Positions 25,074 to 64,000 of a stretch of DNA of 64,000 bases are shown here, in pieces (positions within the stretch are counted from its first letter, which is position 1; each line of letters opens with the position of its first letter). Under the pieces are notes generated by a model that was given only the letters and a program-made list of their open reading frames with translations, searched no databases and was not told the origin of the DNA. The translations under genes and the position numbers were made by a program. Origin of the DNA: an uncultured Gammaproteobacteria bacterium (lineage in GTDB: Bacteria; Patescibacteriota; Patescibacteriia; Magasanikbacterales; UBA922); assembly GCA_965231005.1 (NCBI GenBank), contig OZ246405.1, positions 167,204 to 231,203 of the forward strand, read 5' to 3'.

Positions 25074-25092
25074 AAATATCAAATAAAACATA

Positions 25093-32481: not shown

Positions 32482-32488
32482 AAATAAA

Positions 32489-32644: not shown

Positions 32645-32645
32645 T

Positions 32646-32689
32646 AAAAAGAAAAAGCCCCGTACGTAAACGCCGTGACTCTTCCTCCC
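32646..32689 (-). terminator. Repeated 44-bp terminator module, copy 1, 3' of the UPRT-like gene
   Basis: AAAAAGAAAAAGCCCCGTACGTAAACGCCGTGACTCTTCCTCC, near-identical to 34839-34882. Confidence 0.5.
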
Positions 32690-32721
32690 TTTTGTTTGTT
32701 ATAGACAGGTGGACACACAGC

Positions 32722-33570
32722 CTACTTCTTGGTTCCGTGCAGGCGCTCACCCACACCACCAGCACCAGGCACGATGTAGTGGATGTCGTTGAGTCCAGAC
32801 TCTTCGTCCCAGCGTTCACCGGGCACACAGTTGAGCACGTCTGTTGGGCTCATGCCACGGTCGATTCGACCGGCAAAGATGTGAACGTCTGGATGATCGG
32901 TCGACATCTTGCGGATGAACTCAGGCGTGACGATGAGACACATGACAACGAACGTGGCACCGAATCCACTATACTTCTGCTTGTACAGCGTGACCGCATC
33001 ACTCATGGACCCACCAGTTGCGCCCATGGGGTCTGGAATGAGAACGAGCTTGCCAGCCACATCACCGTCGATCTTGTCAGCCGGGCACTCAACATGCGTC
33101 ACAGCACCAGTTGTCTTGTGGGCCATGCGCTGCATCATGAGAACATCCATGCGCACGCACGCATCACCGAAAGTGGTCGTGAGGATCTCCTGCAGCCTGT
33201 AGCTTGGAATTCCACCAGCGCGCATCACATTTGCAATGACGATTCCACCGGCAGGCGGCTGGATGATCGGACAGGTGAACACTGCCTTGTCTCCAACCAA
33301 CTCATGCATCGGCGTAGTCACAGAAACCGACTTCTGATGAAAAATGGTACGGTCTTCAACCACTGCCTTCATGAGCTGAGAATAGGCTCCTCTCACCAAG
33401 TCGCCAAGCCGCGGCATGACCGCATCCTCACTGGACATTTCCGCGAGCATTCGGAACAGGTAGGGAGATGCAGGAACCCGCAACGAACCCCCACCTTCCC
33501 AATGGTACTGATGAGGGATGTCATCCAGATTGATGTCAAAATACAAATCCCAATGTGGATCTCTGTGCAT
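32722..33570 (-). CDS. GC-rich uracil phosphoribosyltransferase-like protein with a roughly 75-aa N-terminal extension (island E, gene 5)
   Basis: VLIPDPMGATGGSM aligns with Upp ALIVDPMLATGGS. YIVPGAGGVGERLHGTKK aligns with YIIPGLGDAGDKIFGTK. Confidence 0.7.
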   Translation of the reverse strand: MHRDPHWDLYFDINLDDIPHQYHWEGGGSLRVPASPYLFRMLAEMSSEDAVMPRLGDLVRGAYSQLMKAVVEDRTIFHQKSVSVTTPMHELVGDKAVFTCPIIQPPAGGIVIANVMRAGGIPSYRLQEILTTTFGDACVRMDVLMMQRMAHKTTGAVTHVECPADKIDGDVAGKLVLIPDPMGATGGSMSDAVTLYKQKYSGFGATFVVMCLIVTPEFIRKMSTDHPDVHIFAGRIDRGMSPTDVLNCVPGERWDEESGLNDIHYIVPGAGGVGERLHGTKK

Positions 33571-33614
33571 GTCTATCTCCCTACCACTGTTGAATGTGGT
33601 TTCGTTCTGGAAAG

Positions 33615-33643
33615 AGACTATCAAAAAAAATACATCACGTCAA
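33615..33643 (-). promoter_or_regulatory. Internal promoter for the UPRT-like gene
   Basis: TTGACG, 17-bp spacer, TAGTCT. Confidence 0.4.
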
Positions 33644-33653
33644 CGTATTCCTT

Positions 33654-33691
33654 AAAACAGAAAACCTCCACCCGACACTGTCGAATGGAGG
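33654..33691 (-). terminator. Attenuator-like hairpin between the MTAP-like and UPRT-like genes
   Basis: Minus strand CCTCCATTCGACA-gtg-TCGGGTGGAGG followed by TTTTCTGTTTT. Confidence 0.45.
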
Positions 33692-33721
33692 CTTCCTCCT
33701 TGTTGAGTTCTTGTGTTATGC

Positions 33722-34720
33722 CTACTTCCCCCCGAGCAGATGAAACAGCCAGGGCAGGAACCGTTGCAAATACACACGCTTGACCTTGCCGATCTTGGTG
33801 TGAAGACCGATCTGTGGTGCGTCTGCGCAGTAGCACGAAGCTTCGCTCTGAGCAGCCAGGTATGCAGCAGCTGCAGGACCTTGGAAGAACGCATCGAGAA
33901 GCAGGAACAAGGTCTTCTTGCACGTGCCCACGTTCTTGATGATCACAGTCAGATCGACTTCTTCATCAGACCATGCATCCTCATCGACAGGAAGCGCGAT
34001 CGGAACGTAGTGCAGCCCTGCATCACGTGAGAGCTTTGCCTCTGGAGCTGTGGTCATGCCGATGATGCCGATGTAACCGACAAGCTCGAGCAGCTTCTGA
34101 TGAAGGAGCGACTCCAACCTGGTCGAGAACTGCGGACCTTCCATGCAGACATAGCCAACAGGCAGGTCACCAGTGTAGAACAGGTCCTCGTACCCATCGA
34201 GTTGCTTGGCAGTCTCGAGAAGTGCAGCAGAGAGTGCATTGCAGAATGGATCTGCAAACTTCACATGAACAGCACACTCGCCCTCGTCGTAAAAGGTCGT
34301 CTTGCGTTTCGTGGTTTTGTCCCACAGTTGATGCGGCAAAACCGGCTTGCCCGGCTCGATGTCTCCGCTCAGTGAGCCCACGGTTGTTGGCGCGAGCACA
34401 TTCATCGTCAGCATGCGAAGTGCAAAGATGTTCGCCCGATTCGGGATCACAGTCGGAATCGTCTTGTGATAGTTGTCATGGCGCTCGATCACTGCGACAA
34501 TGATTTTTGAGCCTCGCCACGTACCAACGGAGATGTCAGAAGATGGCTTGCCAAACGGAGTGTCCGGATCGTTTAGAACAGTGACGTCCTCGAGCACCTC
34601 TGTGACATCGATGCCCGTTGGACAAAAAAGCGCAAAGTCTGCAGGCAGCAGTTCTTGCAGCTTGGGCCAGGGGAAAAACGTACCTTCGATCGTTGCTCCA
34701 CCGATAGATCTGAAAATCAT
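33722..34720 (-). CDS. GC-rich 5'-methylthioadenosine / purine nucleoside phosphorylase family protein (MTAP-like; island E, gene 4)
   Basis: DTPFGKPS, ANIFAL, PFC, LLETAKQL, CMEGPQFSTRLES, GMTTAPE and VDEDAW align with MTAP. Confidence 0.8.
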   Translation of the reverse strand: MIFRSIGGATIEGTFFPWPKLQELLPADFALFCPTGIDVTEVLEDVTVLNDPDTPFGKPSSDISVGTWRGSKIIVAVIERHDNYHKTIPTVIPNRANIFALRMLTMNVLAPTTVGSLSGDIEPGKPVLPHQLWDKTTKRKTTFYDEGECAVHVKFADPFCNALSAALLETAKQLDGYEDLFYTGDLPVGYVCMEGPQFSTRLESLLHQKLLELVGYIGIIGMTTAPEAKLSRDAGLHYVPIALPVDEDAWSDEEVDLTVIIKNVGTCKKTLFLLLDAFFQGPAAAAYLAAQSEASCYCADAPQIGLHTKIGKVKRVYLQRFLPWLFHLLGGK

Positions 34721-34802
34721 GTTGCCCTCCCAGCAGCATTTGCTGCAAATGAGCGTTCAAGTTCTTTAGACACAAAAAAAGCGTCCTAAACGACTGTAGC
34801 CG

Positions 34803-34831
34803 AGATTTAGATAAATGTCAACATTATTGAA
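34803..34831 (-). promoter_or_regulatory. Promoter for the MTAP-like gene
   Basis: TTGACA, 17-bp spacer, TACAGT. SD is GGGAGGG. Confidence 0.5.
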
Positions 34832-34838
34832 AAAGAAA

Positions 34839-34882
34839 AAGCCCCGTGCATAAACGCCGTGGCTCTTCCTCCTTGATTCTGT
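34839..34882 (-). terminator. Repeated 44-bp terminator module, copy 2
   Basis: GAAAAAGAAAAAGCCCCGTGCATAAACGCCGTGGCTCTTCCTCC. Confidence 0.5.
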
Positions 34883-34887
34883 AATTG

Positions 34888-36666
34888 TTATGCTGCAATG
34901 AGATCTGCTACTGTGACTGGCTTTGGCTCGCCAGGAGCAAGCAGCTTATGCCACTTACGCTCTATAGCTTCAGTCCAAGAAAAAATAAGCGGACACCCTT
35001 CTTCACTCGAGGCTCTAACTCCGATGACTAGACCGTCCTGCCTCATCCGAGAAAGAAACAGATCCAGTGCCAGTCTGGTCGGGAATTCTTTGGTCGGTCC
35101 GACAAACTCCTCTTCGAAATCACTTGCGAGAAAGTCTTTTCCTTCTGACCAGATGAAAATGAGCATCCTGCGGAACTCAACAAGTTCCTTGGGGTTCAGC
35201 TTGATGCAATGACTTATAACGTGTCGGACTTGGTGCTGCGGAAAATGCGGAAGACCTGGCAGCTTTTCTGCGAGCTTTGCTGTCCATGAGTAGGACTTAA
35301 CTTTTCTTTCGTTTTGTCTCACGTCTACTGACGTAAGGAATCCATACTCACAAGCCATATCAATGGATCTCTCCAGACTGACCACGGTTTTGAATTCCTT
35401 ATCCTCTCCAACCAAGTAGTCTTTGACATCACCTAGTGTGAACGGAAGTCCACACGAGCAGATGTACATAAGCCGGAGACGGGTAAGCCATGAATCGTAA
35501 TAGACTGTGTACTCAGGCAAAAGCCAGTTCGCAAGTTTTTGAACAAGTCTAGACTTTGTTTCGCCTTGCGAGCGAAAACTATCAAGCACATGTCCGTACA
35601 TCTTACGAGCTTTCTTCGTCCAATAGTAACGAAATGTACTGGAGTAGTTTTGTGCTTTCTTCGTTGTGACCATCCCACGTCTCTTCAGGAGATTGGTGAA
35701 ATTCTTGAGCTGGCTAAAGGTTCGGAACATCTTGTCCGGACCGACAACACAGTTAGCAATACCACGACGGAGAAATGGATTCCCGTACGAAGCCAAAAAG
35801 AGAAAGAGTCCTCGTCGGTACACCTGAGCTTCTGGCCCACCATGTACCAAATCTGAGTAAACATCGTCTCTGAGGCTTGCAGTGAGAATATCCCACGTCT
35901 CTCTTGAACTGAGCAGTGCTGCAAATGTTTCTAAGAGCTTGTTCTTTCCTGCTTCGGTCCAATCATATGTGGCCCTGGTCGAACTTTGAACAACTTCAAG
36001 CGAGCCATCGTAGACCATAAAATCAAGAAGCTCTCGGACAGGATGAGGGCCAATGAATTCGTCCCTGGTGCCAAAGAAAAATGTCTTGATTTCGTGACCG
36101 AAAAACCGGAGACCGAGCGTTCGAAGGAACACCACTGCTTGCTTCTGCTCAAGAGAAAGAGCGTTGAATGCATCTTCTCGAGCAGCTCTGTTTGCAAGTT
36201 CTGTTCTTCTTTGATTTCGCTCCCGCCTCTCACGAAGCCTTTCTCGGGCGAGAAATCGCTGACGAGCCCTTTCTTGTTCCTTCAGTTCAGCACGTGTAAG
36301 TCGACGCCTTTCTGGACGGCTTGATCTTGTCCGAACCTGACGTATACGCTTGCGCACCACCTTTGCTGGCTCAGGCTTTGACTGAGCGACAAAGTCAGCA
36401 TATCGCTGGAATTCACCTTCTTCCCAACTAGGAACCACGCGAGTGAAAGAGAAGAAGAACTCACGTCCTTTGTTCCGCGTCCCAATCCTACTCGCAAGCA
36501 TCTTCCCAGTTCCAGAATTTCTCAGTAAATGGGTTACAACATCGTCTTCGCACTCAAACGGACATCCGTCATCTTTGACGTGCGCGACCACAAACGACAG
36601 AGGAAATTCTTTCATCCCTCTGGTCAGCAGCCACACCCAGTGCAAATATGTAATTTGCCTTTGCAT
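34888..36666 (-). CDS. GC-rich hypothetical 592-aa protein with an Arg-rich coiled segment (island E, gene 3)
   Basis: Start at MQRQITYLH with SD GGAGGTG. No domain recognised. Confidence 0.55.
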   Translation of the reverse strand: MQRQITYLHWVWLLTRGMKEFPLSFVVAHVKDDGCPFECEDDVVTHLLRNSGTGKMLASRIGTRNKGREFFFSFTRVVPSWEEGEFQRYADFVAQSKPEPAKVVRKRIRQVRTRSSRPERRRLTRAELKEQERARQRFLARERLRERRERNQRRTELANRAAREDAFNALSLEQKQAVVFLRTLGLRFFGHEIKTFFFGTRDEFIGPHPVRELLDFMVYDGSLEVVQSSTRATYDWTEAGKNKLLETFAALLSSRETWDILTASLRDDVYSDLVHGGPEAQVYRRGLFLFLASYGNPFLRRGIANCVVGPDKMFRTFSQLKNFTNLLKRRGMVTTKKAQNYSSTFRYYWTKKARKMYGHVLDSFRSQGETKSRLVQKLANWLLPEYTVYYDSWLTRLRLMYICSCGLPFTLGDVKDYLVGEDKEFKTVVSLERSIDMACEYGFLTSVDVRQNERKVKSYSWTAKLAEKLPGLPHFPQHQVRHVISHCIKLNPKELVEFRRMLIFIWSEGKDFLASDFEEEFVGPTKEFPTRLALDLFLSRMRQDGLVIGVRASSEEGCPLIFSWTEAIERKWHKLLAPGEPKPVTVADLIAA

Positions 36667-36712
36667 GATCCACCTCCAATAGGATGGTTGGTTAATGTAG
36701 AGAGCAAGATAA

Positions 36713-36741
36713 AAATTACCAGAAAAATTGATAGTGGTCAA
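36713..36741 (-). promoter_or_regulatory. Candidate internal promoter for gene 3
   Basis: TTGACC, 17-bp spacer, TAATTT. Preceded by the hairpin CTCCCCCGAC/GTCGGAGGAG at 36769-36790. Confidence 0.35.
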
Positions 36742-36841
36742 CCTTTGATACTCTCACAAAGTTGAAACTCCCCCGACGATGTCGGAGGAGTGTCTTGTTG
36801 ACCAACCGCCGTCAAATGACAGAGATTGATACTTGAATTTT

Positions 36842-37300
36842 TCAGCTTGAATTAATTGGCTGATTTACCAACCAATCATAATGACCGCGACTGATGCGAA
36901 CGAACATCGGATTGTTTGAACGAGTTCGCCAACTGGCGTAAGCGATAGCACTTCTTCTTGTCTTGAATGGACAGTCTGGACTATCAATCAGGTGTTGAAG
37001 ACATGTATCTTTTATGGAAAATGGGCGGCCGCATGTCACATTCCAAAACCATTGGTCAGCTTCAGTCATTCCATCTGGCTCGGATCTGTTGAGCCAGTGA
37101 TAGAAGTTACCACCACGGATTTCGAGCAGTCTCATCCATTTGAGATCATCAATGACCTCCAGGACGATCCGCACTGACGGAAACTGCGTTCCTTTTCCAA
37201 CCTTCTCAACAACGTGCGCCGAGTGGAATCGAATTGGAAACGTTTCGCGTAGCCATTTCTGAATTTCAAGCTTTCTTGGAGTAATTGTTCTGTGTTCCAT
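36842..37300 (-). CDS. GC-rich hypothetical 152-aa protein with a possible Cys/His metal site (island E, gene 2)
   Basis: Start at MEHRTITPRK with SD AAGGGGGTG. The C/H spacing (CGRPF..CLQHLIDSPDC) hints at a metal site. Confidence 0.5.
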   Translation of the reverse strand: MEHRTITPRKLEIQKWLRETFPIRFHSAHVVEKVGKGTQFPSVRIVLEVIDDLKWMRLLEIRGGNFYHWLNRSEPDGMTEADQWFWNVTCGRPFSIKDTCLQHLIDSPDCPFKTRRSAIAYASWRTRSNNPMFVRISRGHYDWLVNQPINSS

Positions 37301-37488
37301 ACCAACACCCCCTTGTTTTGTTGGTGGTTGCAACAGACGTAGAGTCAAAGAGCGATAACTGACCCTATCATGATGCATCTTTCCTGTCAATGCAAATGAA
37401 AAAGCGCCTAGCGGTCTGTCGACCAGCTAAACGCTTTTTTTCCTTGCCCGGCTTGGAAACCGAACCCCTGTGTCTTGTGTTGTACTGA

Positions 37489-39297
37489 CTACGCTGCTTC
37501 ACTTGCATTCTGCGATTCCCGCTGCATCATGAGCTTGTCCACCCAACTACGAGGAACAACCCCAGGCACATAGCTGCCATAACGACTGTTGCGAGGTGTG
37601 TAGATGAAAACTCCTTGAACGATGAGTTCGCCCTGGACCTTTGCGTTTCTCCAGTCTTGTGAGGACATGTTAGAGCTGGTCTTTGCACGGAGAGCCTTGC
37701 AGTCTTCACTTCTGAACAGTTGTCCATCACTTGCAAGGAATATCTCCAAACCTCGATTGTAGCCCATTGGAGGGAGCCGGATGTACTCACGCGTCCAAAA
37801 GCCTTTGTACCAGACTGCGCCGTCTTCGCGGACTGTACCATCCGTTAGCTCAGTTGATGTAGCAGCTCGCTGTTCATAAAGTTCGTCGACCCACGAACGC
37901 AAAACCACTCCCGGTGTGTAGATTCCTCCACGTTTCCCTTCTTTCGAAGCGTATGAGTATGCTGCATCGAGCACACCACCCTGCTGTACAGCACTACGCC
38001 ACTGAGGGTAACTCATGGGAGGACTGATGACCTTGAGAAATTCCTTGATTGCCGATGACGGAAATGGTTGTCCGTCACTTTTGAGGAACATCTTCCTGAC
38101 TCGATCTTGAGCAAATGGACGAAGACCTGGAATCTCATCCATCACCCAAAAACCCCTGTACAGAACTGCACCATCTTCGCGGGCTGTACCGTCCTTCAGT
38201 TCAGTTGATGCTTTCTCGTCAGGCTTGTCTTCGGCCTGTTCTGGTTCTGCACCTTCTTCTTCGCTCGATTCATCATCAGCTTCGCTAGTTGCTGGCTCAG
38301 AATCTTCTGCTGCTGGTTCGTCCTCGACCTCTTCAGTCTCATCTGGATCTGCAGCTTCAGGTTCGATGGGTTCATCCGCATCTTGGATTTCAGGCTGAGA
38401 ATCTTCAGCTTGCGCCTGCTCAGTTTGATCTGCGGAATCAGCATCCGAATGAACCGGACCCTCACCCCAACCTGGTGGCGGACTTCCTTCCTGCCCGATC
38501 GGTGCAGCAAAAACCTTTGCAGCTCGTGCTGCAGCGGCAGCTTCTCGTGCTCTGACTTCTGCCTGAGCTTTCTCAGCAAGCGCAGCCCAGTTTCTGGAAC
38601 GGACAGACCAATCAACAGATCCAACCACCTCTACCATCCCATCTTCTCGGAACGTTGGCCTTGACCGGGGAAGAGTTGAAAGAGGCCATGAAGGAGCTGC
38701 TGGCTTTGCAGCTTGCTCACCCTCAACAGGCGTTTCGTCGTCAGCGTTTTGCTCTGGATGCAGCAGTGCAATGTTCAACTTCCAGCGACCTCTGCCAGCA
38801 TCGAGCAGCAGTTGGCATGCCACCAAATCAGAGAAAACAACATCACTTCCCTTCAGCCACTCAATGAGCCTGAAACGAGCAAAAACAGCACTGTTTGGAT
38901 CCTTGCCACCCTCGATCAGCTTGATTTCAATGAGCCGAGCTGCCTCAAAGTCAGCTTCCTCAGGATCTCGAAAAACGATTTTCTTCTTGATCGGTGGCGC
39001 TTTTTTACGACGCTTTGAAGATTTCGACTCCCCACCAGAAGGACGTTGAGAAAGGCAAGCACGCCCAGAATCTGTAAAGTACAGATGACCACTAGTGAGA
39101 CGCTTCAGGAACCCATGCCTGGTAGCATCTGAGATGAATGCAGCGAGATCGTCTTTTGCAATCCGCCCACTTACACGGAGAGCTTCTGGGAGAAGTCGCG
39201 CTCCATGCAATGTTTTGCTCATCCGTCCTAGTACTGTTGCCACCTCAGCAGCAACTGTTTTTTGACTCTTGACCATAGCCTTCTTTTTGCGAGCCAT
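37489..39297 (-). CDS. GC-rich 602-aa protein with a basic N-terminal region, a roughly 90-aa acidic low-complexity linker and two tandem roughly 110-aa C-terminal repeats (island E, gene 1)
   Basis: SD is GAGGAGGTCATC then ATG. The two repeat units begin ELKDGTAREDGAVLYRGFW and ELTDGTVREDGAVWYKGFW. Confidence 0.6.
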   Translation of the reverse strand: MARKKKAMVKSQKTVAAEVATVLGRMSKTLHGARLLPEALRVSGRIAKDDLAAFISDATRHGFLKRLTSGHLYFTDSGRACLSQRPSGGESKSSKRRKKAPPIKKKIVFRDPEEADFEAARLIEIKLIEGGKDPNSAVFARFRLIEWLKGSDVVFSDLVACQLLLDAGRGRWKLNIALLHPEQNADDETPVEGEQAAKPAAPSWPLSTLPRSRPTFREDGMVEVVGSVDWSVRSRNWAALAEKAQAEVRAREAAAAARAAKVFAAPIGQEGSPPPGWGEGPVHSDADSADQTEQAQAEDSQPEIQDADEPIEPEAADPDETEEVEDEPAAEDSEPATSEADDESSEEEGAEPEQAEDKPDEKASTELKDGTAREDGAVLYRGFWVMDEIPGLRPFAQDRVRKMFLKSDGQPFPSSAIKEFLKVISPPMSYPQWRSAVQQGGVLDAAYSYASKEGKRGGIYTPGVVLRSWVDELYEQRAATSTELTDGTVREDGAVWYKGFWTREYIRLPPMGYNRGLEIFLASDGQLFRSEDCKALRAKTSSNMSSQDWRNAKVQGELIVQGVFIYTPRNSRYGSYVPGVVPRSWVDKLMMQRESQNASEAA

Positions 39298-39515
39298 GAT
39301 GACCTCCTCTGATCCCTAGTCTGTCCCAAAATGGACAAAAACTGGTTTCAAAAATATTTTCTGCGTCTATTACAGATGGTATATAGTCCAAAATTCATTT
39401 TTGAGACCAGTTCTATATAAAACGTAACAAGAAATAGCATGCTCGTCAATTATTGCCGACAAAAATTCACCATGCTATAATCTGCTTGTATATTTAAGTC
39501 CTGACACACTATTAT

Positions 39516-40611: not shown

Positions 40612-40836
40612 GCAATTAACAACTAACAATTAGCAATTAACAAGAATTTAGTATAGAATAACTTTCTTAGAAAAAAAGATTATTTATCAGCTAATAGTTA
40701 ATAGTTATTAGACAACTTGGCTTCTGCCTTTCTTATGTGGTCTATTAACTAGTAACTAATAGCTATTAATTCCGTACTCGTTATAAAGAATTTTTTCTAC
40801 TAAGCTTGTTAATTGTTTTTTGTTAATTGTTAATTG
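40612..40836. repeat. MITE-like structured intergenic element, copy B
   Basis: 33-bp terminal inverted repeats GCAATTAACAACTAACAATTAGCAATTAACAAG and CTTGTTAATTGTTTTTTGTTAATTGTTAATTG. The core is homologous to copy A. Confidence 0.65.
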
Positions 40837-40841
40837 ATTTT

Positions 40842-46995: not shown

Positions 46996-47028
46996 AGCAA
47001 TTAACAAATATCAATATAAATCAAGACC

Positions 47029-50022: not shown

Positions 50023-50435
50023 AGGAATACTATTACCCTATTGAAACGCGTGGCAAAAATAAAAAAACAGCTACCAACAAACTGATACCTGCAAGCAAAT
50101 AATAGTAAACAAGGTGAAATTCTTCTCTTTCTTGGGTATTAAAAAGACCCTTATGTTTATGTTGCATAGATTTTGTGTTTGTTTTGATGTTTATGTTTGT
50201 TTGGGGCGCATTGTCCCCTGTCTTTGTGTCCCAACTGGCGTGTGAGATCACACGTTATGATACAAAAGCACTACACACCTACATTATTCTCCGATAAAAC
50301 AACAACCGGATGAAAAATATAAATATCTGCTACTTTTATATAACTATTATAGCAGAAAAAAGGGCGTTTGTCAATAGCAATTTTTTGCAAAAAACCTTTA
50401 CTTTGCGATTCAAGTGTCGTAAAATAGTTACATAT

Positions 50436-51413
50436 ATGAAAAAAAATCTTGCAAAACTTCTCAGAGAATTTCTTGAACATTTAGAAATTGAAAAAAATCG
50501 AAGCAGCAAAACTGTTCAAAACTATACCTTCTATCTTTTTAGATTTTTAGAGTGGCATGGAGAAGATAAAGGGGCAAAAAGTATTGATGGTGAGGCTGTA
50601 CGCCAATATCGTCTTTGGTTAAATAGGCTTGTTGATGTTCACGGGGAACCCTTGAAAAAAAATACACAAAATTATCATCTTATTGCATTGCGTTCTTTTC
50701 TAAAATACCTAGCAAAACGTGATATCACGAGTTTGGCAGCAGAAAAAATTGAATTAATGAAAATGCCAGACCGCCAAGTAACATTTTTAGAAGGCACAGA
50801 TCTTAGTCGCCTACTCGAAGCACCAGTAGAAGAATTAAAAAATACAAAAGACCAAAAAAACGCATCAACAAATAGACTGATCGGTCTTAGAGACAAATGT
50901 ATTTTAGAAATGTTGTTTTCAACCGGTCTACGTGTTTCAGAATTGGCAAAATTAAAAATTGAAGATGTAAATGTTGAAAAGGATGAATTTACTATTCAAG
51001 GGAAGGGAAAGAAAACAAGAATTGTATTTTTATCTGAGCAGGCAAAATACTGGTTAAAAGAATACACAAAAGCAAGAAAAGACATGAATCCTCATTTATT
51101 TGTATCTCATGACAAGAACAAAAAGGCAAGAGACAAAAAAGCAGAAACTCTCGAGTCAATTAGTCCAAGGACGATTCAACGAATTGTTCAAAAATATGCA
51201 AAAATAGCTGGAATTACAAAACCAGTAACTCCTCATACCTTGCGACATTCATTTGCAACAGATCTTTTGCAAAATGGAGCAGATATTAGGAGTGTTCAGA
51301 GCATGCTAGGTCATTCTTCTATAACAACAACACAAATTTACACCCATATTACAGATAAGGAGCTTCGAAAGATACACAAAAAATTCCATGGGAAAAAGCG
51401 AAGTGGCGATTGA
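50436..51413 (+). CDS. Tyrosine site-specific recombinase, XerC/XerD-like
   Basis: Catalytic R..K..HxxR..Y (LRHSFATDLL, GHSSITTTQIYTH). AT-rich. Confidence 0.8.
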   Translation: MKKNLAKLLREFLEHLEIEKNRSSKTVQNYTFYLFRFLEWHGEDKGAKSIDGEAVRQYRLWLNRLVDVHGEPLKKNTQNYHLIALRSFLKYLAKRDITSLAAEKIELMKMPDRQVTFLEGTDLSRLLEAPVEELKNTKDQKNASTNRLIGLRDKCILEMLFSTGLRVSELAKLKIEDVNVEKDEFTIQGKGKKTRIVFLSEQAKYWLKEYTKARKDMNPHLFVSHDKNKKARDKKAETLESISPRTIQRIVQKYAKIAGITKPVTPHTLRHSFATDLLQNGADIRSVQSMLGHSSITTTQIYTHITDKELRKIHKKFHGKKRSGD

Positions 51414-51438
51414 CAAATCGTTGTTTTAGCGTTACTAT
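51410..51438 (+). promoter_or_regulatory. Promoter of tRNA-Arg
   Basis: TTGACA, 17-bp spacer, TACTAT, 12 nt before the tRNA. Confidence 0.55.
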
Positions 51439-51450
51439 AGCCCTCATTAC

Positions 51451-51522
51451 GCCCTGATAGTTCAATGGATAGAACACCGGCCTTCTAAGCCGGGAATGTA
51501 GGTTCGATCCCTACTCGGGGCA
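51451..51522 (+). tRNA. tRNA-Arg (anticodon TCT)
   Basis: Hand-folded cloverleaf with a 7-bp acceptor stem containing one G-U pair, D-arm GTTC/GAAC, anticodon loop CTTCTAA and T-arm GTAGG-TTCGATC-CCTAC. Confidence 0.8.
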
Positions 51523-51562
51523 CAATACAAACACCAACCTTTAACTATTAATATAAAAAGGT

Positions 51563-52306
51563 ATGGAAATCACATCACTTTTTACATTCATCATAATCGT
51601 GCTGCTTATCAGCATTCGCCAGGTGAATGAATATCAACGGGGGGTTAAATTTCAGCTCGGAAAATTTACACGAGTAGTAAATCCAGGTTGGAGATTGGTC
51701 ATTCCAATTTTCCAAAGCATGGTAAAAGTAGACATCCGTGTTAAGGCAGTCGATGTTCCTTTTCAAGAAGCAATTACAAAGGACAATATTTCTGCAAAAA
51801 TCAATGCGGTTATTTACTACCGAGTAGCAGATGCAAAAAGAGCAATTATTGAAGTGGAACGATTTAGACATGCAGTCAGTCAGCTTGCACAAACAACAAT
51901 GAGAAATGTTGTAGGTGAAATGGAATTGGATCAATTACTTTCTAATCGTTTAGCTGCTGCACAAAAAATAAAAGAAATTGTTGACGCTGCAAGTGATCCA
52001 TGGGGAATTGAAGTTGAAAGTGTTGAACTGAAAGACGTTATTCTTCCAGACGATATGCAACGTGTTATTGCAAAACAAGCAGAAGCAGAACGTGAAAGAC
52101 GTGCAGTTGTTATTAAATCTGGTGGTGAAGTTGAAGCAGCAGAAAACTTGCGAAGAGCTGCAGAAATGTTGCACAGTCAGACTGGTGCGCTTCACTTGCG
52201 TACATTGAATACACTGAATGATTTGAGTTCAGATCAAAGTAATACTGTGATTTTTGCTCTTCCACTCGAGGTCTTGAGAGCGTTTGAGAAAATGGGAAGC
52301 AGATAA
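51563..52306 (+). CDS. SPFH/band-7 (stomatin/HflK-like) protein
   Basis: N-terminal transmembrane helix then an SPFH domain (RVVNPGWRLVIP...). Confidence 0.8.
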   Translation: MEITSLFTFIIIVLLISIRQVNEYQRGVKFQLGKFTRVVNPGWRLVIPIFQSMVKVDIRVKAVDVPFQEAITKDNISAKINAVIYYRVADAKRAIIEVERFRHAVSQLAQTTMRNVVGEMELDQLLSNRLAAAQKIKEIVDAASDPWGIEVESVELKDVILPDDMQRVIAKQAEAERERRAVVIKSGGEVEAAENLRRAAEMLHSQTGALHLRTLNTLNDLSSDQSNTVIFALPLEVLRAFEKMGSR

Positions 52307-52319
52307 AAAAATTACAAAA

Positions 52320-52351
52320 TAAAAAACCTGGCCTAAGGCCAGGTTTTTTGC
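52320..52351. terminator. Bidirectional terminator
   Basis: AACCTGGCC-taa-GGCCAGGTT flanked by A and T tracts. Confidence 0.8.
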
Positions 52352-52367
52352 TATTCGCAAAACTAAT

Positions 52368-52898
52368 TTATTTTATGATCCAAGGACTTACATCACTTTC
52401 AGATAAGTACTCCCCACTTTCTCCACAAAAAGATCCAGAAAACTCACAATAAGAACCGCTGAGTTTATTATCTTCTGTCCATTCAAAATTGATTGGATTA
52501 ATATCCTTACCAACAACATCATATGTCTTTCTGTCTGCAACAGAATATATTTTTACATACACACTTTCCCACCCATCAGCAAGCATTGCAACAAACTTTT
52601 TATCTGGTGAAAATTCAGCTTTTGAATATCTGTACTGAGAAAAATGAGAACTTACATCTCCATCAACCTCCTTTTTCTGCTCGGCTACTAGCGTAGATTG
52701 ACCTTCCTCGTCTGCAATATAAACATCACCGTTCTTTATATGAACCTGACTTATCTTTTTTTGAGACTGATCTTTTTGCTCAACTATGTTGCTGCCGTCA
52801 TTATAATCACCTTCAGGCGTAACATGTAACTTCACAGACGCGCAACCGGCACCAAATAAAATTGTTATAAAGCAAAGAAAAATTATTCTTTTATACAT
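52368..52898 (-). CDS. Lipoprotein
   Basis: Lipobox LFGAGC after a hydrophobic signal. About 176 aa. Confidence 0.6.
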   Translation of the reverse strand: MYKRIIFLCFITILFGAGCASVKLHVTPEGDYNDGSNIVEQKDQSQKKISQVHIKNGDVYIADEEGQSTLVAEQKKEVDGDVSSHFSQYRYSKAEFSPDKKFVAMLADGWESVYVKIYSVADRKTYDVVGKDINPINFEWTEDNKLSGSYCEFSGSFCGESGEYLSESDVSPWIIK

Positions 52899-52970
52899 AA
52901 TATATTTATTAGCAATACTCAAAAACCTTAACAAGAAGCCATTGACCTGTCAAATCAAAAAACAGAGATC

Positions 52971-52999
52971 TTGACACAGGTGGCAGATTGAAGTATAAT
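52971..52999 (+). promoter_or_regulatory. Promoter of tRNA-His
   Basis: TTGACA, 17-bp spacer, TATAAT. Confidence 0.6.
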
Positions 53000-53023
53000 T
53001 GTCTTCGACAAAGCCCCTAGCGG

Positions 53024-53097
53024 GGTGGCTATGGTGTAGTGGTAACACAGAGGCTTGTGGTGCCTTTATCACGGGTTCGATCCCCGTTAGCCACCCC
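53024..53097 (+). tRNA. tRNA-His (anticodon GTG) with an encoded G-1
   Basis: Hand-folded. G-1 pairs with discriminator C. Acceptor GTGGCTA/TAGCCAC. Anticodon loop TTGTGGT. T-arm ACGGG-TTCGATC-CCCGT. Confidence 0.8.
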
Positions 53098-53116
53098 TTT
53101 GGGGGTTTTTTATTTG
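53089..53116 (+). repeat. tRNA-His 3' end plus terminator, repeat copy i
   Basis: AGCCACCCCTTTGGGGGTTTTTTATTTG. An identical 28-mer recurs at 54081-54108 and a diverged copy at 53569-53606. Confidence 0.8.
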
Positions 53117-53120
53117 GATC

Positions 53121-53149
53121 AAAAAAACACCAGAGTTGGTGTTCTTTTG
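53121..53149. repeat. Cassette-boundary hairpin module 1
   Basis: AAAAAAACACCA-gagt-TGGTGTTCTTTTG. Confidence 0.75.
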
Positions 53150-53182
53150 TTATAGGAAAAGCCGTATAGGTCTAGTCATGAT

Positions 53183-53500
53183 CTACCCCCCTGCCTCAAA
53201 TATCGTTGCCAGATCTTCAATTTCCTCTCTTGTCCATCCATCATAATATTCGCTCCAAAAAGGATGTTCTTTATCCTCAAGCATCGCTCTATAGTCGTAG
53301 GACAGACTCTTAAACGAGACTGGGGATGGGTTTTCAGACTCCAGCACACTACGCTCTTTCTCAAATTCACGCTGGAATATTTTCATCACCCTGTCTGTAG
53401 GTGCCAACTGCTTGGCTTTTTCACTGACCCTGTTTAGTATCTCCTCACCCATCTCCTTTACATACGCAATTTCCCTATATGGGCTCAATTCACTATCCAT
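53183..53500 (-). CDS. Hypothetical 105-aa acidic protein (cassette F6)
   Basis: ORF between boundary modules. Its promoter TTGTTC, 16-bp spacer, TATAAT lies at 53528-53555. Confidence 0.5.
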   Translation of the reverse strand: MDSELSPYREIAYVKEMGEEILNRVSEKAKQLAPTDRVMKIFQREFEKERSVLESENPSPVSFKSLSYDYRAMLEDKEHPFWSEYYDGWTREEIEDLATIFEAGG

Positions 53501-53568
53501 ATGAAAATATTAATAATAATCTCCCTCATTATAGCACCAATCAGAGAATGAACAAAGTTCTAATACCG

Positions 53569-53606
53569 CCCACTAACCCACCCCAGTGGGGGTTTCTTTT
53601 TTTACG
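53569..53606 (+). repeat. Diverged copy ii of the tRNA-His 3' end plus terminator module
   Basis: CCCACTAACCCACCCCAGTGGGGGTTTCTTTTTTTACG compared with CCCACTGAGCCACCCCTTTGGGGGTTTTTTATTTGCAC. Confidence 0.6.
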
Positions 53607-53653
53607 CTAATTTTCTTGTTTTTGTTGAGGGAAATATCTTGGCTCTAACCAAA

Positions 53654-53683
53654 CAAAAAAACACCATGGTTGGTGTTCTTTTG
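53654..53683. repeat. Cassette-boundary hairpin module 2
   Basis: AAAAAAACACCA-tggt-TGGTGTTCTTTTG, followed by a second hairpin GCGGTTT..AAACCGC. Confidence 0.75.
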
Positions 53684-53740
53684 TGCTCGCGGTTTTTTGG
53701 GAAACCGCGAAAACCTTTGGCCTTTCCTCTCACGTAAGGA

Positions 53741-53974
53741 TTACCGACGAGAGCAGGAATCGCGAGGCAAGGAAAGCACTGTTCCCCGGCCACCGCACCG
53801 AGAACAGCGGGATCTTGCAGCGCGCCTGCTGCACCCTCCTCCGCCACATGCGGGACATGTCGGGCAGGTCATCGTGAACCCGTGCCCTCCACATCTTGTG
53901 CACGTTGAAGAGAACGTAACTTCGCCACTTCCATCACACCTGGGGCAAGTGACTCTAATTTCCTTCTCATTCAT
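53741..53974 (-). CDS. GC-rich 77-aa DnaJ-type zinc-finger miniprotein with four CxxCxGxG repeats (cassette F5)
   Basis: CPRCDGSG, CTRCGGHG, CPTCPACGGGG, CSRCGGRG. SD is AAGGAGG. The promoter TTGACA, 17-bp spacer, TATATA lies at 54008-54036. Confidence 0.6.
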   Translation of the reverse strand: MNEKEIRVTCPRCDGSGEVTFSSTCTRCGGHGFTMTCPTCPACGGGGCSRRAARSRCSRCGGRGTVLSLPRDSCSRR

Positions 53975-54071
53975 ACAACCCTCCTTGGTTGTTGAAACAC
54001 ACATTCATATATAGCATGGCAGTTCTTTCTTGTCAACTGTACAACACTCTTTATATCGAGGATACTAATAT

Positions 54072-54108
54072 CCCCCACTGAGCCACCCCTTTGGGGGTTT
54101 TTTATTTG
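54072..54108 (+). repeat. tRNA-His 3' end plus terminator, repeat copy iii (identical 28-mer)
   Basis: CCCCCACTGAGCCACCCCTTTGGGGGTTTTTTATTTG. Confidence 0.8.
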
Positions 54109-54163
54109 CACTGTGTCTCGCCGAAGCCCTGTCTGCCGACAGGCAGGTTTAGTGAAGGCGGAT

Positions 54164-54192
54164 CAAAAAAACACCATTACTGGTGTTCTTTT
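54164..54192. repeat. Cassette-boundary hairpin module 3
   Basis: AAAAAAACACCA-ttac-TGGTGTTCTTTTG. Confidence 0.75.
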
Positions 54193-54303
54193 GTTATCGG
54201 GCGATTCGTATTGAATCACCCATCTCCTTCAGCCCGATATAGCTCGGGCCAGGCCTCTGCAAAAAGCAGGAGTGAAAGGTGGCTTTCTCAGCCACTACGT
54301 TTT

Positions 54304-55476
54304 TCATCGGCTTTTCCGACGGCGTCTATTCCTTGGGCTAGGTTTTCTTCGCGGTCTTCTCAGTCGGATAAAGGACAAACCCTCGAGTGCACGAATGGCA
54401 GACTGCTCTTTGGATTTTTCCGCACTGGATCCAACACCAATCCCAATTCGCTGCTCTCCGACGAACACTTGTCCGACGAACCAAGTCTGCGAACCTGACC
54501 TTTGCTCAACCTCATAGGTTGGCAACACGCCGAGCTGCTCTAGTAACCTGCGCTGCAATTTCTCGACTGCGCTGTTTGGGGTCCCTTCAGCATACTTCTG
54601 GACCTCGAGCTCGACTTGTGGAGTAGAGGCCGGAGGTGGTTCAGGTTCAACGTTACTTGGAGCCCGAGACGTTGTTGCTGGAGAAGTTCGTTTGTTTGTG
54701 GAAGATAGGGTTCGTGAAGGTTCGCTGCGAGGAGCTGTTGGCTCAACTCGAGTGAACAACTGTGGATGCATTCTGGCGAGCTTTATCAGTGCGCGCCTTG
54801 CAGCTTCTTCCATGGACGCAGGCTTAGTACTGCCCATGCCAGATGCGAAATCCTGTCCATCGATGAGAGCAACAGACCGGACTCTGCCGGTTGGAATCTT
54901 CCCGTTCTGCTTCACAGTCCTCATGCCAGGCTTTTTGCCAAGCCGAGTAACCAGAAGCCGAAACCTCACAAAAGGAGTGTTGAGATGTCTCTGTCTGACT
55001 TCTGGGAGCCGAGAACAAACAAGTCTGTGAACAAACGACCTTGCTTCTCCATACCCGACATCAAGGTTAATCGCCTGAATGATTGCTTCCATTGCACAAG
55101 CAACCTTCATGTAGCTGCGACCAATACGGAGGCTCTTCTTTTGGTACACAGTCCCGCGGATGTCGAGATGCAAGCCAAGACTGATTCCAATATCAGCAAG
55201 ACATCGGTTGCTAACCAGCTCTCGGCAGTATCGAGTCAGTTCGACTAACGTCTCCCCTGGTGCTCGATGGCTGACAAGATATCCTCTGACAATACCTTCG
55301 AGAAGTCCGTCACCGATCCACTCGAATTCTCTGTTGTCGCCGAGCTCGCTTGCTTCGGGATTCTCCCAGACAAATTCCTTGGTAGTCAGTGCAACGAGAA
55401 GAACTCGCTTGTCTTCGAACGTCACACCGATCTTTTTCTCAACTCGCGAAACAAGTTCGCGGTCAGATTGGTGCAT
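54304..55476 (-). CDS. GC-rich RNase III-like protein with two C-terminal dsRBDs, a Pro/Ser/Thr-rich linker and an Arg-rich tail (cassette F4)
   Basis: The signature NREFEWIGDGLLEGIV parallels ERLEFLGDSILS. Two dsRBD C-terminal halves are present (GSTKPASMEEAARRALIKL and GSSAEKSKEQSAIRALEGL). The second catalytic Asp appears replaced by Cys in hand alignment (ACAMEAI versus ADTVEAL). The promoter lies at 55565-55593. Confidence 0.7.
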   Translation of the reverse strand: MHQSDRELVSRVEKKIGVTFEDKRVLLVALTTKEFVWENPEASELGDNREFEWIGDGLLEGIVRGYLVSHRAPGETLVELTRYCRELVSNRCLADIGISLGLHLDIRGTVYQKKSLRIGRSYMKVACAMEAIIQAINLDVGYGEARSFVHRLVCSRLPEVRQRHLNTPFVRFRLLVTRLGKKPGMRTVKQNGKIPTGRVRSVALIDGQDFASGMGSTKPASMEEAARRALIKLARMHPQLFTRVEPTAPRSEPSRTLSSTNKRTSPATTSRAPSNVEPEPPPASTPQVELEVQKYAEGTPNSAVEKLQRRLLEQLGVLPTYEVEQRSGSQTWFVGQVFVGEQRIGIGVGSSAEKSKEQSAIRALEGLSFIRLRRPRRKPSPRNRRRRKSR

Positions 55477-55617
55477 GTGCACCTCCCAATATGCTATGAA
55501 GCTCTACCCTTCTTGTGCGAAGAGGAGCTTAGTTTTTATATGCCCATGTTTTGTGGGACGTATAAACATATCATAACACAGTTTTTTTGTCAATAAAGCG
55601 AACTTTTTAATGAAATA

Positions 55618-55649
55618 TCAAAAAAACACCATTTTCTGGTGTTCTTTTG
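55618..55649. repeat. Cassette-boundary hairpin module 4
   Basis: ATCAAAAAAACACCA-tttt-CTGGTGTTCTTTTG. Confidence 0.75.
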
Positions 55650-55800
55650 ATTGGCCCCAACAATGATGTTCGTCATGTCAGAGCGGTGTTTGGTCAACTG
55701 CAAGCAGCTGCCTAAGTAGGGAGCATTCGTCAACGAGTGACAAATGATTCCAAGGGCCAAAGGCCAGAATCTGGAGGACTATGATTTTTTTTGCTGGCGA

Positions 55801-56214
55801 CTAGCTCAGCAGTTCGCGGATGCTCGTGCTAAGCGACTCGCTCAGGTGTTGATCGACAACGAGCTTGCCATCGACCTTGTTCATGATGACGACATGGGTC
55901 ATGCCATTCGAGGACATTTCTGCCTCGAGCAACAGCTGATACATGTCGATGAGTTTGACAGGAATCTTCTTGAGCATCTCTGGGTTTCTCGCAAACGATT
56001 GAATCGACACGATGTTGCCAGTGAGATCAGGAAAAAGCGCGTCTCCATTCTCGTCCCACAGAGGGGAATCTTCAGGTTCGCTCACAGTGACCACTGCGAC
56101 GCGTCCATCGGACCAAATCCTTCTCAGCTTCTCCTCCTCTCGTCGAGTGAAGGAGCATCCGAAATGATCTGCAAGAACCCAACAGGCCCTATCATACTTA
56201 TCATACCTATCCAT
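55801..56214 (-). CDS. GC-rich hypothetical 137-aa protein (cassette F3)
   Basis: The promoter TTGACA, 16-bp spacer, TATATT is at 56248-56275. The leader carries the inverted repeat GTCCA-caaaa-TGGAC. SD is AAGGAGGTGAAAG. Confidence 0.55.
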   Translation of the reverse strand: MDRYDKYDRACWVLADHFGCSFTRREEEKLRRIWSDGRVAVVTVSEPEDSPLWDENGDALFPDLTGNIVSIQSFARNPEMLKKIPVKLIDMYQLLLEAEMSSNGMTHVVIMNKVDGKLVVDQHLSESLSTSIRELLS

Positions 56215-56328
56215 CTTTCACCTCCTTGTCCATTTTGTGGACGCTTTAATATAGCATAAAAAAAGCTTTTTGTCAAGGGGGAATCCTGAATATTTATTTA
56301 AAATAAAGCATTTTTTTGCAAATTTAAT

Positions 56329-56347
56329 ATCAAAAAAACACCATTTT
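56329..56347. repeat. Cassette-boundary module 5 (truncated, 5' arm only)
   Basis: ATCAAAAAAACACCATTTT then AACAATGATG. The 3' arm present in module 4 is deleted. Confidence 0.6.
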
Positions 56348-56398
56348 AACAATGATGCCTTTTTGGTTTAGGGCAATGCTCCAAGATTGCCCCTCCCC

Positions 56399-56761
56399 CT
56401 ATGAATGTTCTTGTTCGAGTCGACGGAGAATCCGCAGCGCAGACTCTGCGAATTCGTGATCCTGGTCAAACCGATCTGGTATGTTTCGCTGTGTGTTACC
56501 GATAGACGTACGAGAAAACTGTGGGAACGCCACATGAGTCGCTGGAACATCCATGTGGCTGAACCAGTAAAGAAAGTAGATGCACAGCTTTTGCGCTCGA
56601 CTCAGTGGCTCACCACTCTTGTGAAAACCGATCTTGTCAAGATCGACTCCGCATACGTCAGCACAAACTGCAATCACACGCTCTGTTTTGTATCGCCGCC
56701 GCTCCATTGCAGCACTTCGCAGCACCTGTCCGGGTGGATCTGTACTATAGATGCACCTCAT
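56399..56761 (-). CDS. GC-rich 120-aa protein with a possible DnaA-C-terminal-like HTH (cassette F2)
   Basis: Translationally coupled to F1 through an ATGA overlap. LSRAQKLCIYFLYWFS..HVAFPQFSRTSIGNTQ loosely parallels the DnaA domain IV pattern. Confidence 0.45.
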   Translation of the reverse strand: MRCIYSTDPPGQVLRSAAMERRRYKTERVIAVCADVCGVDLDKIGFHKSGEPLSRAQKLCIYFLYWFSHMDVPATHVAFPQFSRTSIGNTQRNIPDRFDQDHEFAESALRILRRLEQEHS

Positions 56762-57222
56762 GCCAGGTGTGGACGCGTCTTGCGCGCACAGGCCAGGAAG
56801 CAGCGCGCAATCGGACCGTGCCAGTACGAGTAGAGGATGAACTGCAGTGGCTGGCTCGTGTCAGGAAACATCCGAGTGATCATCCTTCCTCCAGGCCGAT
56901 CAAACCGATCACGCTCTGGCTCGACACGAACAGGAATCCGCGGGTGATCCACGCGGATCCATGCCGGACCAGCTTGTGTGTGGATCGAAGCGCAGAAAGG
57001 CCCGTCGGTCGAACCTTCCTTGACCATGCAGCCAGTGACGTACTCTCCGGTCTCGAGAAGATGTCGAGCCTGCTCATCGGTGATGGTGTGCTGCACCACT
57101 CGCCGTCCTTCTTCGTCGCGCGGCACCGTACGTGCGGCCGGCGTGCGATCCCACAGACCGTCGTGCCACTTGCGATCACGACGCCTGCCAAAACCAATAT
57201 CTCTGCCGAGTCCCATAGTCAT
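56758..57222 (-). CDS. GC-rich hypothetical 154-aa protein (cassette F1)
   Basis: Start at MTMGLGRD with SD GGAGGTCATC then ATG, identical to the island E gene 1 SD. The promoter TTGACA, 17-bp spacer, TATAAC lies at 57257-57285. Confidence 0.5.
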   Translation of the reverse strand: MTMGLGRDIGFGRRRDRKWHDGLWDRTPAARTVPRDEEGRRVVQHTITDEQARHLLETGEYVTGCMVKEGSTDGPFCASIHTQAGPAWIRVDHPRIPVRVEPERDRFDRPGGRMITRMFPDTSQPLQFILYSYWHGPIARCFLACARKTRPHLA

Positions 57223-57346
57223 GATGACCTCCGTGTTGTAGGAACGTTGCCATAGGGTTATACATGAAAAAGATGAAGATGTCAATTAGGAAAACAAAAA
57301 AACCTTTTTTAAGGTTTACAATATATTTAAATATGAATTTTTGAAT

Positions 57347-57392
57347 GCGCCTTTTAAGCCTTTAAGGCCTCTACGGCTTTTAAAGCCTTTTT
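57347..57392. repeat. 9-bp tandem array x5 at the outer edge of island F
   Basis: GCGCCTTTT AAGCCTTTA AGGCCTCTA CGGCTTTTA AAGCCTTTT. Confidence 0.65.
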
Positions 57393-57517
57393 ATCGTCTC
57401 CTCAACCACATCCCCGGAAACCCGGGGCTGTGATATTTGGAAGGATAGACATACGTCCATCTATTCCCCCTTAATAGAGCAAAAAGACTATATGAGTGGC
57501 TTGCTTCTACAGCAAAA

Positions 57518-63863: not shown

Positions 63864-63904
63864 AAAAAGGCACAATTGCCTTTTTTCTATACTGTCATTG
63901 CGAG

Positions 63905-63945
63905 GATAGCCTTTATGGCTTTTAAGGCATTTTAAGCTTTTACTC
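63905..63945. repeat. 9-bp tandem array x4 at the window end
   Basis: ATAGCCTTTA TGGCTTTTA AGGCATTTT AAGCTTTTA. Confidence 0.6.
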
Positions 63946-64000
63946 AGTAATACAATCCTGATACACAGTTGATCCATCATTATATCCACCTTGAGGATCA

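Follow-up and report, generated by a model that had tools for sequence, protein, structure and literature searches.

An RNase III-like protein with two double-stranded RNA-binding domains in a tRNA-His-linked gene array of a Patescibacteriota genome

We analysed a 64,000-nt stretch of contig OZ246405.1 (positions 167,204 to 231,203; assembly GCA_965231005.1), hereafter the window, from an uncultured bacterium that was deposited as a gammaproteobacterium and is placed by GTDB in the Patescibacteriota (Magasanikbacterales, UBA922). The window carries a minus-strand gene for an RNase III-like protein of 390 amino acids (aa), and the identical protein (P0001) is recorded in NCBI/ENA on a contig of 1,232,850 bp. 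The host genome is 1.23 Mb long and has about 36% GC. This size, its type IV pilus genes and the occurrence of relatives in groundwater metagenomes also suggest a member of the Patescibacteria. Window genes such as ileS, gyrA, ftsH, pilB and thrS have a GC content at third codon positions (GC3) of 0.20-0.28, and the value is 0.49 for the RNase III-like gene. This gene is the third of five single-gene cassettes that form a GC-rich array directly downstream of a tRNA-His gene, the array genes having a GC3 of 0.47-0.63 (Table 1).

With a putative promoter, ribosome-binding site and terminator of its own, the RNase III-like gene forms a separate unit of transcription, judged from these predicted signals. 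An in-frame GTG at 55482 offers a longer start but overlaps the GGGAGG ribosome-binding site, and for this reason we take the ATG at 55476 as the start codon. The 5' untranslated region contains a 12-bp hairpin and nothing longer, so that a long stem of the kind used in rnc autoregulation is absent. The gene also occurs, near-identical or identical (99.96-100%), in two independent ENA metagenome assemblies (ERZ930065 and ERZ930061) that were located through flanking host proteins. As both carry the same strain at an identity of at least 99.96%, they offer no population variation to read.

The protein is predicted to consist of an RNase III catalytic fold, two double-stranded RNA-binding domain (dsRBD) folds joined by a disordered linker, and a final Arg-rich tail. 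In Pfam, residues 24-156 match Ribonucleas_3_3 (PF14622) with 44 bits (cut-off 35; E 3e-11), and two stretches match dsrm (PF00035) with 46 bits (cut-off 23; E 7.7e-12). PF00636 falls below its cut-off (24.2 vs 27 bits), as does the TIGR02191 equivalog (88.1 vs 166.25 bits). The best phmmer matches in the PDB are the RNases III of C. jejuni (4.7e-14) and T. maritima (3.5e-11), and the two-dsRBD protein TARBP2 spans query residues 169-365. An AlphaFold2 model of the 390-aa protein, built on 57 sequences, has a mean predicted local distance difference test score (pLDDT) of 80.7. The RNase III domain and dsRBD1 (168-236) score above 90, and dsRBD2 (303-369) shows the alpha-beta-beta-beta-alpha order at about 75. 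Residues 241-301 are disordered (pLDDT <50), and the C-terminal tail is unstructured with low pLDDT. In a Foldseek search of the PDB the top ranks were taken by T. maritima 1o0w, E. coli 7r97 and A. aeolicus 2ez6 (E 1e-11 to 1e-12, with 1e-12 to 1o0w), and the target template-modelling score to the C. jejuni nuclease domain 3o2r was 0.87-0.89. A first-pass annotation, made from the letters and translated open reading frames (ORFs) of this DNA, had proposed the same order of RNase III domain, two dsRBDs, Pro/Ser/Thr-rich linker and Arg-rich tail; Pfam, the PDB search and AlphaFold2 uphold it, and all of the peptides that it quoted are present in the ORF, on the minus strand. Profile alignment and structure prediction thus agree on two dsRBDs, which rules out a Mini-III enzyme (an RNase III domain without a dsRBD), and the alignments do not place Asp or Glu at every catalytic position.

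Table 1. Position of the RNase III-like gene, its domains and active-site residues, and the surrounding array (coordinates are those of the window)
Feature	Position	Strand	Details and basis
Coding sequence of the 390-aa RNase III-like protein	54304..55476	minus	ATG 55476, TGA 54304-54306; Pfam, PDB search
RNase III catalytic domain, residues 1-165	54982..55476	minus	PF14622, alignments, AlphaFold2, Foldseek
dsRBD1, residues 168-236	54769..54975	minus	phmmer, AlphaFold2
Disordered linker, residues 237-302	54571..54768	minus	66 aa with 12 Pro, 9 Ser, 9 Thr; AlphaFold2, composition
dsRBD2, residues 303-369	54370..54570	minus	Best dsrm stretch 306-368, AlphaFold2, matches to Staufen and Drosha dsRBDs
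Basic tail IRLRRPRRKPSPRNRRRRKSR	54307..54369	minus	13 Arg/Lys in 21 aa; composition, low pLDDT
E52 (E. coli E41)	55321..55323		Kept
G55 (E. coli G44)			Kept
D56 (E. coli D45)	55309..55311		Kept
E130 (E. coli E117)	55087..55089		Kept
R49 (E. coli E38)	55330..55332		Changed
L77-V78 (E. coli E65-G66)	55243..55248		Changed
C84 (E. coli R72)			Changed
C127 (E. coli D114)	55096..55098		Changed
Ribosome-binding site GGGAGG	55482..55487	minus	5 nt ahead of the ATG; sequence reading
Sigma-70-type promoter TTGACA-17-TATGTT with extended -10 TG	55565..55593	minus	Homologous to the promoters of two neighbouring cassettes
Short GC-rich hairpin	54278..54296	none	Directly past the stop codon of the RNase III-like gene
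Junction hairpin H, CAAAAAAACACCA-loop-TGGTGTTCTTTTG	54164..54193	none	Bidirectional, terminator-like; downstream of the RNase III-like gene
Further junction hairpin copies	53120..53149, 53654..53683, 55619..55649		Half copy at 56331..56343
tRNA-His(GTG)	53025..53097	plus	
GC-rich array of five single-gene cassettes	53098..57300	minus (all)	Directly downstream of tRNA-His; RNase III-like gene third

Of the six acidic residues in the active site (E38, E41, D45, E65, D114 and E117 in E. coli) the protein has lost three, namely E38, E65 and D114. The replacement of E38 by Arg49 turns NER into NRE in a column that is Glu in 135 of 150 homologues. Leu77-Val78 stand in place of E65-G66, in columns that are Glu in 145 and Gly in 143 of the 150. 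Further changes appear in the MAFFT alignment to which the E. coli enzyme was added (G121 to Gln134 and F124 to Asn137). Among its neighbours 37 columns reach a conservation of 85% or more; the query deviates in 15 of them, and the median homologue in 2. The acidic residues of the first metal site had been described as retained; this holds for the equivalents of E41 and D45 (E52 and D56) and fails for that of E38, which is Arg49.

Cys127 lies at the position of E. coli D114 in all three alignments that we made (phmmer, 151 sequences in MAFFT, and the version with E. coli added), which reproduces an earlier hand alignment of ACAMEAI with ADTVEAL. The E. coli sequence that was added has 226 aa, and each of its six acidic residues carries its published number. 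The D114 column holds Asp in 59, Asn in 40, Cys in 28, Gly in 9 and Ala in 8 of the 150 nearest cluster representatives. A deep mutational scan of E. coli rnc found that E41, D45 and E117 tolerate no substitution, that E38A, E38V and most E65 substitutions are deleterious, and that D114 is the sole mutation-tolerant active-site position, with D114G and D114R near wild-type fitness (PMC10037077). Because the column is naturally Asp, Asn or Cys and D114 tolerates mutation in E. coli, the Asp-to-Cys change is weak evidence for altered catalysis. The alignments instead suggest that Cys127 is a natural variant of the family and no inactivating change, and the special catalytic alteration that the first-pass annotation suspected in it is not supported. 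What that annotation did not notice are the larger deviations, which are E38 to Arg, E65-G66 to Leu-Val, R72 to Cys, and the loss of RNA contacts in dsRBD1.

In dsRBD1 most of the consensus RNA-contact residues are replaced (K168P, Q172F, E173R, Q176V, P193K, H195P and K219P); G192 and K218 are retained, and the fold is intact. The second domain retains the helix-1 Leu-Gln and the PxY motif, has SGSQT in the place of GPxH, and lacks the Lys-Lys pair at the start of helix 2.

Bacterial class-1 RNases III (1O0W, 3N3W, 7R97 and 2EZ6) are the best matches both in sequence (E 1e-11 to 1e-14) and in structure (Foldseek E 1e-11 to 1e-12), and share with the query the RNase III domain, a dsRBD and the core formed by E41, G44, D45 and E117. 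The query differs from them in its low identity (20-35%), in the substitutions E38 to R, E65-G66 to L-V, R72 to C, D114 to C and G121 to Q, and in the degenerate contacts of dsRBD1. It also differs in having an added 66-aa linker, a second dsRBD and an Arg-rich tail, and in its TIGR02191 score, which lies under the equivalog cut-off (88 vs 166). Its N-terminal region is long, as in the top-ranking homologues P0003, P0004, P0005 and P0009.

Sequence searches show the protein to be an orphan. From 5.8 billion proteins a word-indexed search returned the protein itself and one weak match, and in an exhaustive phmmer search of 1.84 billion representatives the best match reached 3e-19 at 30-35% identity, with none above 35%. 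The top 150 phmmer matches are almost all ordinary bacterial-type RNases III of 220-250 aa. The RNase III structures of giant viruses, an iridovirus and sweet potato chlorotic stunt virus (SPCSV) match less well in Foldseek than the bacterial class-1 enzymes do. Neither a relative of the protein nor the junction hairpin of the array was found in viral contigs. PHROGs gave the generic phage RNase III family alone (1e-12), and PADLOC returned nothing for the protein or for any of its cassette neighbours.

Ten longer proteins among the top 150 homologues were tested for their domain order, and one of them (P0009) has an RNase III domain followed by two dsRBDs; among the rest are proteins with two RNase III domains in tandem and fusions to KH domains. 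P0009 adjoins a sigma-70 gene, in a bacterial genomic context. Its 119 nearest relatives (58-64% identity) are all single-dsRBD enzymes of about 230 aa, and those with names belong to Patescibacteria, Uhrbacteria, Kerfeldbacteria, Buchananbacteria and Parcubacteria. The rule that a bacterial RNase III has one dsRBD, on which the first reading of this DNA leaned, therefore stands as a rule, with P0009 as an exception. The two-dsRBD form thus arises rarely and sporadically in bacteria and is no mark of eukaryotic or viral ancestry.

P0009 (327 aa) resembles the query in the order of its three domains, in a collinear full-length alignment and in a dsRBD2 without the Lys-Lys pair. Unlike the query, it has a canonical active site (NERLEFLGD, EG, and Asn at the D114 position), close ordinary relatives, a short linker and no Arg-rich tail. 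As the two proteins are only about 26-32% identical, their shared architecture may be convergent. The query dsRBD2 is closest to that of P0009 (36% identity over 55 residues), which is weak evidence either way. Another homologue, P0043 (locus L106; 235 aa, 28% identical), has the same pattern at the altered positions, R49/A77/C127 (E38 to R, E65 to A, D114 to C), with the Glu/Asp/Glu core intact. Both P0043 and P0009 (locus L025) come from SRR22387xxx runs.

We consider it probable, if by no means certain, that the protein is a horizontally acquired, fast-diverged accessory paralogue of bacterial class-1 RNase III whose activity is altered or weakened. By analogy with other class-1 enzymes it would dimerise through its RNase III domain and bind double-stranded RNA (dsRNA). 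Because the residues that E. coli cannot replace (E41, D45 and E117) are kept as E52, D56 and E130, two-metal, Mg2+-dependent cleavage through them may still be possible. Substrate positioning and specificity are probably altered and activity is probably reduced, as E38, E65-G66 (part of RNA-binding motif 3) and most of the dsRBD1 contacts are lost; the second dsRBD and the Arg-rich tail might supply compensating RNA affinity or partner binding. The protein would then act as an accessory dsRNA-processing or dsRNA-binding factor beside a canonical host Rnc, and not as the housekeeping enzyme. The window contains no other RNase III. Genomes of the candidate phyla radiation (CPR) generally retain rnc (PMC12641178), and for this reason the gene is probably a second, accessory copy.

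Several observations count against this interpretation. The equivalents of E38 and E65 are lost, and since E38A, E38V and most E65 substitutions are deleterious in E. coli, cleavage activity may be absent. In each of the two dsRBDs many of the canonical RNA-contact residues are missing, so that dsRNA binding is a prediction from fold. Finally, named Patescibacteria RNases III and the best matches overall both show about 30% identity to the query, and as the two values are alike no donor lineage is singled out.

The strongest competitor, which we regard as possible but clearly less likely, is a pseudo-nuclease that has lost cleavage and binds dsRNA or a partner, for example by sequestering dsRNA or by forming inactive heterodimers with the host Rnc. 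The 15 altered columns, the absence of residues corresponding to E38 and E65-G66 (each present in 135-145 of 150 homologues, with substitutions deleterious in E. coli) and the scores of PF00636 and TIGR02191 below their cut-offs would all fit such a protein, as would a dsRBD2 that lacks the Lys-Lys pair in the manner of protein-binding type-B dsRBDs. Drift in a dead enzyme would be unlikely, however, to spare E41, D45 and E117 together with G44, and the recurrence of the R49/A77/C127 pattern in P0043, with the counterparts of E52, D56 and E130 kept, hints at a tolerated variant of the active site. A decaying passenger gene, in which an intact-looking ORF without function rides on a junk island under relaxed selection, would account for the extreme divergence, the want of close relatives and the neighbouring orphan proteins that match no family. 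We consider this unlikely, since the 390-codon frame is uninterrupted, confident folds are predicted for each of its three domains, the triad essential for catalysis is kept, the promoter is near consensus with a strong ribosome-binding site and a terminator, and two independent metagenome assemblies carry the gene in identical or near-identical form.

An effector of eukaryotic or viral origin, taken from a eukaryotic host or directed against one and with the tail serving as a nuclear or nucleolar targeting signal, is very unlikely. Arabidopsis RTL2 has one RNase III domain and two dsRBDs and forms a homodimer (PMC5714217), and the Mucorales protein R3B2 has an atypical RNase III domain with one or two dsRBDs and cuts single-stranded RNA (PMC8136814). 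The architecture that the query shares with them, the similarity of its basic tail to a nuclear localisation signal and the foreign composition of the gene speak for such an origin. Yet the top 150 sequence matches are bacterial-type enzymes of 220-250 aa, the best structures are those of T. maritima, E. coli and A. aeolicus with the giant-virus and plant-virus enzymes behind, and viral contigs hold no relative. A two-dsRBD RNase III has arisen among Patescibacteria-type enzymes (P0009), a basic tail occurs on the bacterial-type homologue P0003, and neither a secretion signal nor a secretion system was identified beside the gene. RTL2 is eukaryotic and keeps its essential catalytic residues; no relationship specific to it surfaced among the best 150 of 1.84e9 representatives, all bacterial-type, although no direct alignment to RTL2 was made. 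R3B2 resembles the query in unusual substitutions at canonical catalytic positions and is a precedent for a degenerate RNase III domain that gains a new specificity, but it is fungal and its family signature is wholly gone, whereas the query keeps E..GD and E117. No protein named R3B2 was among the PDB sequence matches at E <= 1, the presence of an R3B2 chain in that copy of the PDB being unconfirmed. The foreign origin proposed in the first-pass annotation is hence supported by gene composition and by the absence of the island from syntenic relatives, and a eukaryotic or viral source is not indicated, the best matches being bacterial. Least credible of all is a role as an enzyme dedicated to the long hairpins beside other cassettes, such as the one at 18369-18422, which the same annotation had suggested the protein could process. 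That hairpin is longer than the 15-bp stem first reported, with about 25 bp and one mismatch (-43.3 kcal/mol, z = -12), and a stem of this length suffices for cleavage by class-1 RNase III. Nothing links the protein to it, however: it lies 36 kb away in another island with other junction repeats, the hairpins of the gene's own array look like terminators, any RNase III including the host Rnc could cut a 25-bp stem, and the protein is a singleton.

Should the accessory paralogue that we favour prove active, it would demonstrate that the equivalents of E38 and E65 are dispensable in a bacterial RNase III and that Cys can stand at the D114 position, and would be a rare two-dsRBD, basic-tailed form of the family, useful for studying how substrates are selected and perhaps for engineering. 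Should it prove inactive, it would exemplify, in bacteria, a pseudo-enzyme derived from RNase III. In either case it is a rare variant of a well-known enzyme and no new kind of system.

More unusual than the protein itself are the tRNA-His array and the further GC-rich islands, which have junction modules in common. The 3' end of tRNA-His with its T-run is directly repeated at 53560-53602 and 54065-54107, and the corresponding pattern, CCACCCC(TTT/AGT)GGGGGTTT, has 3 matches against 0 expected. These copies bound the first two cassettes only; at the RNase III cassette the hairpin module is the sole boundary element. The junction hairpin closes each unit of the array; four of its copies are full and one is a half copy, and its pattern has 14 matches where 4.2 are expected. 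The copies look like terminators, since their perfect, A/U-rich stems of 13-15 bp run into T-runs. Homologous TTGACA/extended -10 promoters precede three of the five units, namely those of a zinc-finger gene, the RNase III-like gene and the next gene. The remaining cassette proteins match nothing in Pfam, PHROGs or PADLOC and are orphans, apart from the zinc-finger protein, which is of DnaJ type. The zinc-finger protein (53741-53974, minus strand) has 77 aa with CXXCXGXG repeats and an Arg/Ser-rich C-terminus, and its real start is probably the second ATG, behind an AAGGAGG site. Rfam recognizes nothing in the array besides tRNA-His.

Upstream of the array, a conserved block with the order tyrosine recombinase, tRNA-Arg, Band-7/SPFH gene and tRNA-His (50310-53097) occurs in at least 17 metagenomic relatives, with identities of 66-86% for the Band-7 protein and 60-70% for the recombinase. 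None of these relatives has the array, a repeat of the tRNA 3' end beyond tRNA-His, or any of the cassette proteins. Because the relatives share the block without the array, the tyrosine recombinase is a core gene and the array a lineage-specific insertion. Loci with the conserved block include L026, L034, L038, L039, L041, L045, L048, L053, L054, L061, L067, L072 and L077. In one of them (L045; Ga0100379_10000197) the spacer downstream of tRNA-His is similar to that of the window, and a host-like GC content (about 37%) beside tRNA-His switches to a block of about 60% GC some 4.5 kb downstream. The window has an extra gene for a 188-aa lipoprotein-like protein between Band-7 and tRNA-His (52368-52934), which is in none of the relatives.

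Like tRNA-linked islands and arrays of integrative elements, the array starts at a tRNA 3' end, has three direct copies of it and is of foreign composition. Unlike them, it is made of single-gene units of 0.5-1.5 kb, each with its own promoter/terminator module, and has no internal integrase; no recombinase lies within 53098-57300. Integron cassettes are promoterless, end in imperfect attC sites and lie beside an integron integrase. An integron was ruled out here by three cassettes with promoters, by the perfect hairpin with its T-run, and by the synteny of the recombinase in 17 relatives that lack the array. A prophage remnant with its own integrase was also considered and rejected. A scan for the junction hairpin in a genome collection that does not include the genome of the window gave 18 matches, which are unrelated terminators, some of them in CPR genomes; L010, L016 and L017 were not comparable. 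Several Logan contigs (L020, L021, L023 and L024), assembled independently from short reads of the same samples, end inside tRNA-His (53037-53047) or the last cassette (56677-57006), breaks that could reflect repeats or strain heterogeneity at the array.

A more speculative view, to which we give little weight, is that the array is an undescribed gene-capture platform in which foreign ORFs are placed between conserved promoter and terminator modules of host-like type. The RNase III-like protein would then be a conflict effector, for instance one directed at dsRNA against phage or host, and its degenerate active site (R49/L77/C127), Arg-rich tail and additional type-B-like dsRBD would mark a new functional RNase III subclass.

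Further GC-rich islands (46-66% GC) lie in the window at 7000-8000, 18300-21050, 25000-26500, 29000-29500 and 32500-39500. Their proteins are mostly without a Pfam match, the exceptions being GATase-like and PNP_UDP_1 proteins. The GC content reaches 66% at 18500-19500, with a strong excess of A over T. The 25-bp hairpin described above lies behind a consensus promoter (TTGACA-17-TATAGT, plus strand), the two together spanning 18297-18422; the coding strand of this island is ambiguous, because the stop codon of a minus-strand ORF (18392-19678) falls within the hairpin.

Repeats recur at the edges of these islands. A 9-bp unit (GCNTTTAAG-like) forms tandem runs at 16822-16868, 18138-18295, 19898-19944, 21047-21102, 57348-57403 and 63899-63954 (15 matches against 0.29 expected), which sit at the edges of GC-rich islands and include the outer edge of the tRNA-His array. 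An intergenic repeat with a 7-bp period (TTGTTAA / CAATTAA) is present at 7924-7957, 16633-16657, 22525-22558, 32477-32644, 40612-40643, 40806-40839 and 46997-47021, several of its copies being at island borders. In addition, a 43-nt junction sequence occurs at 32646 and again at 34830, with 93% identity between the copies.

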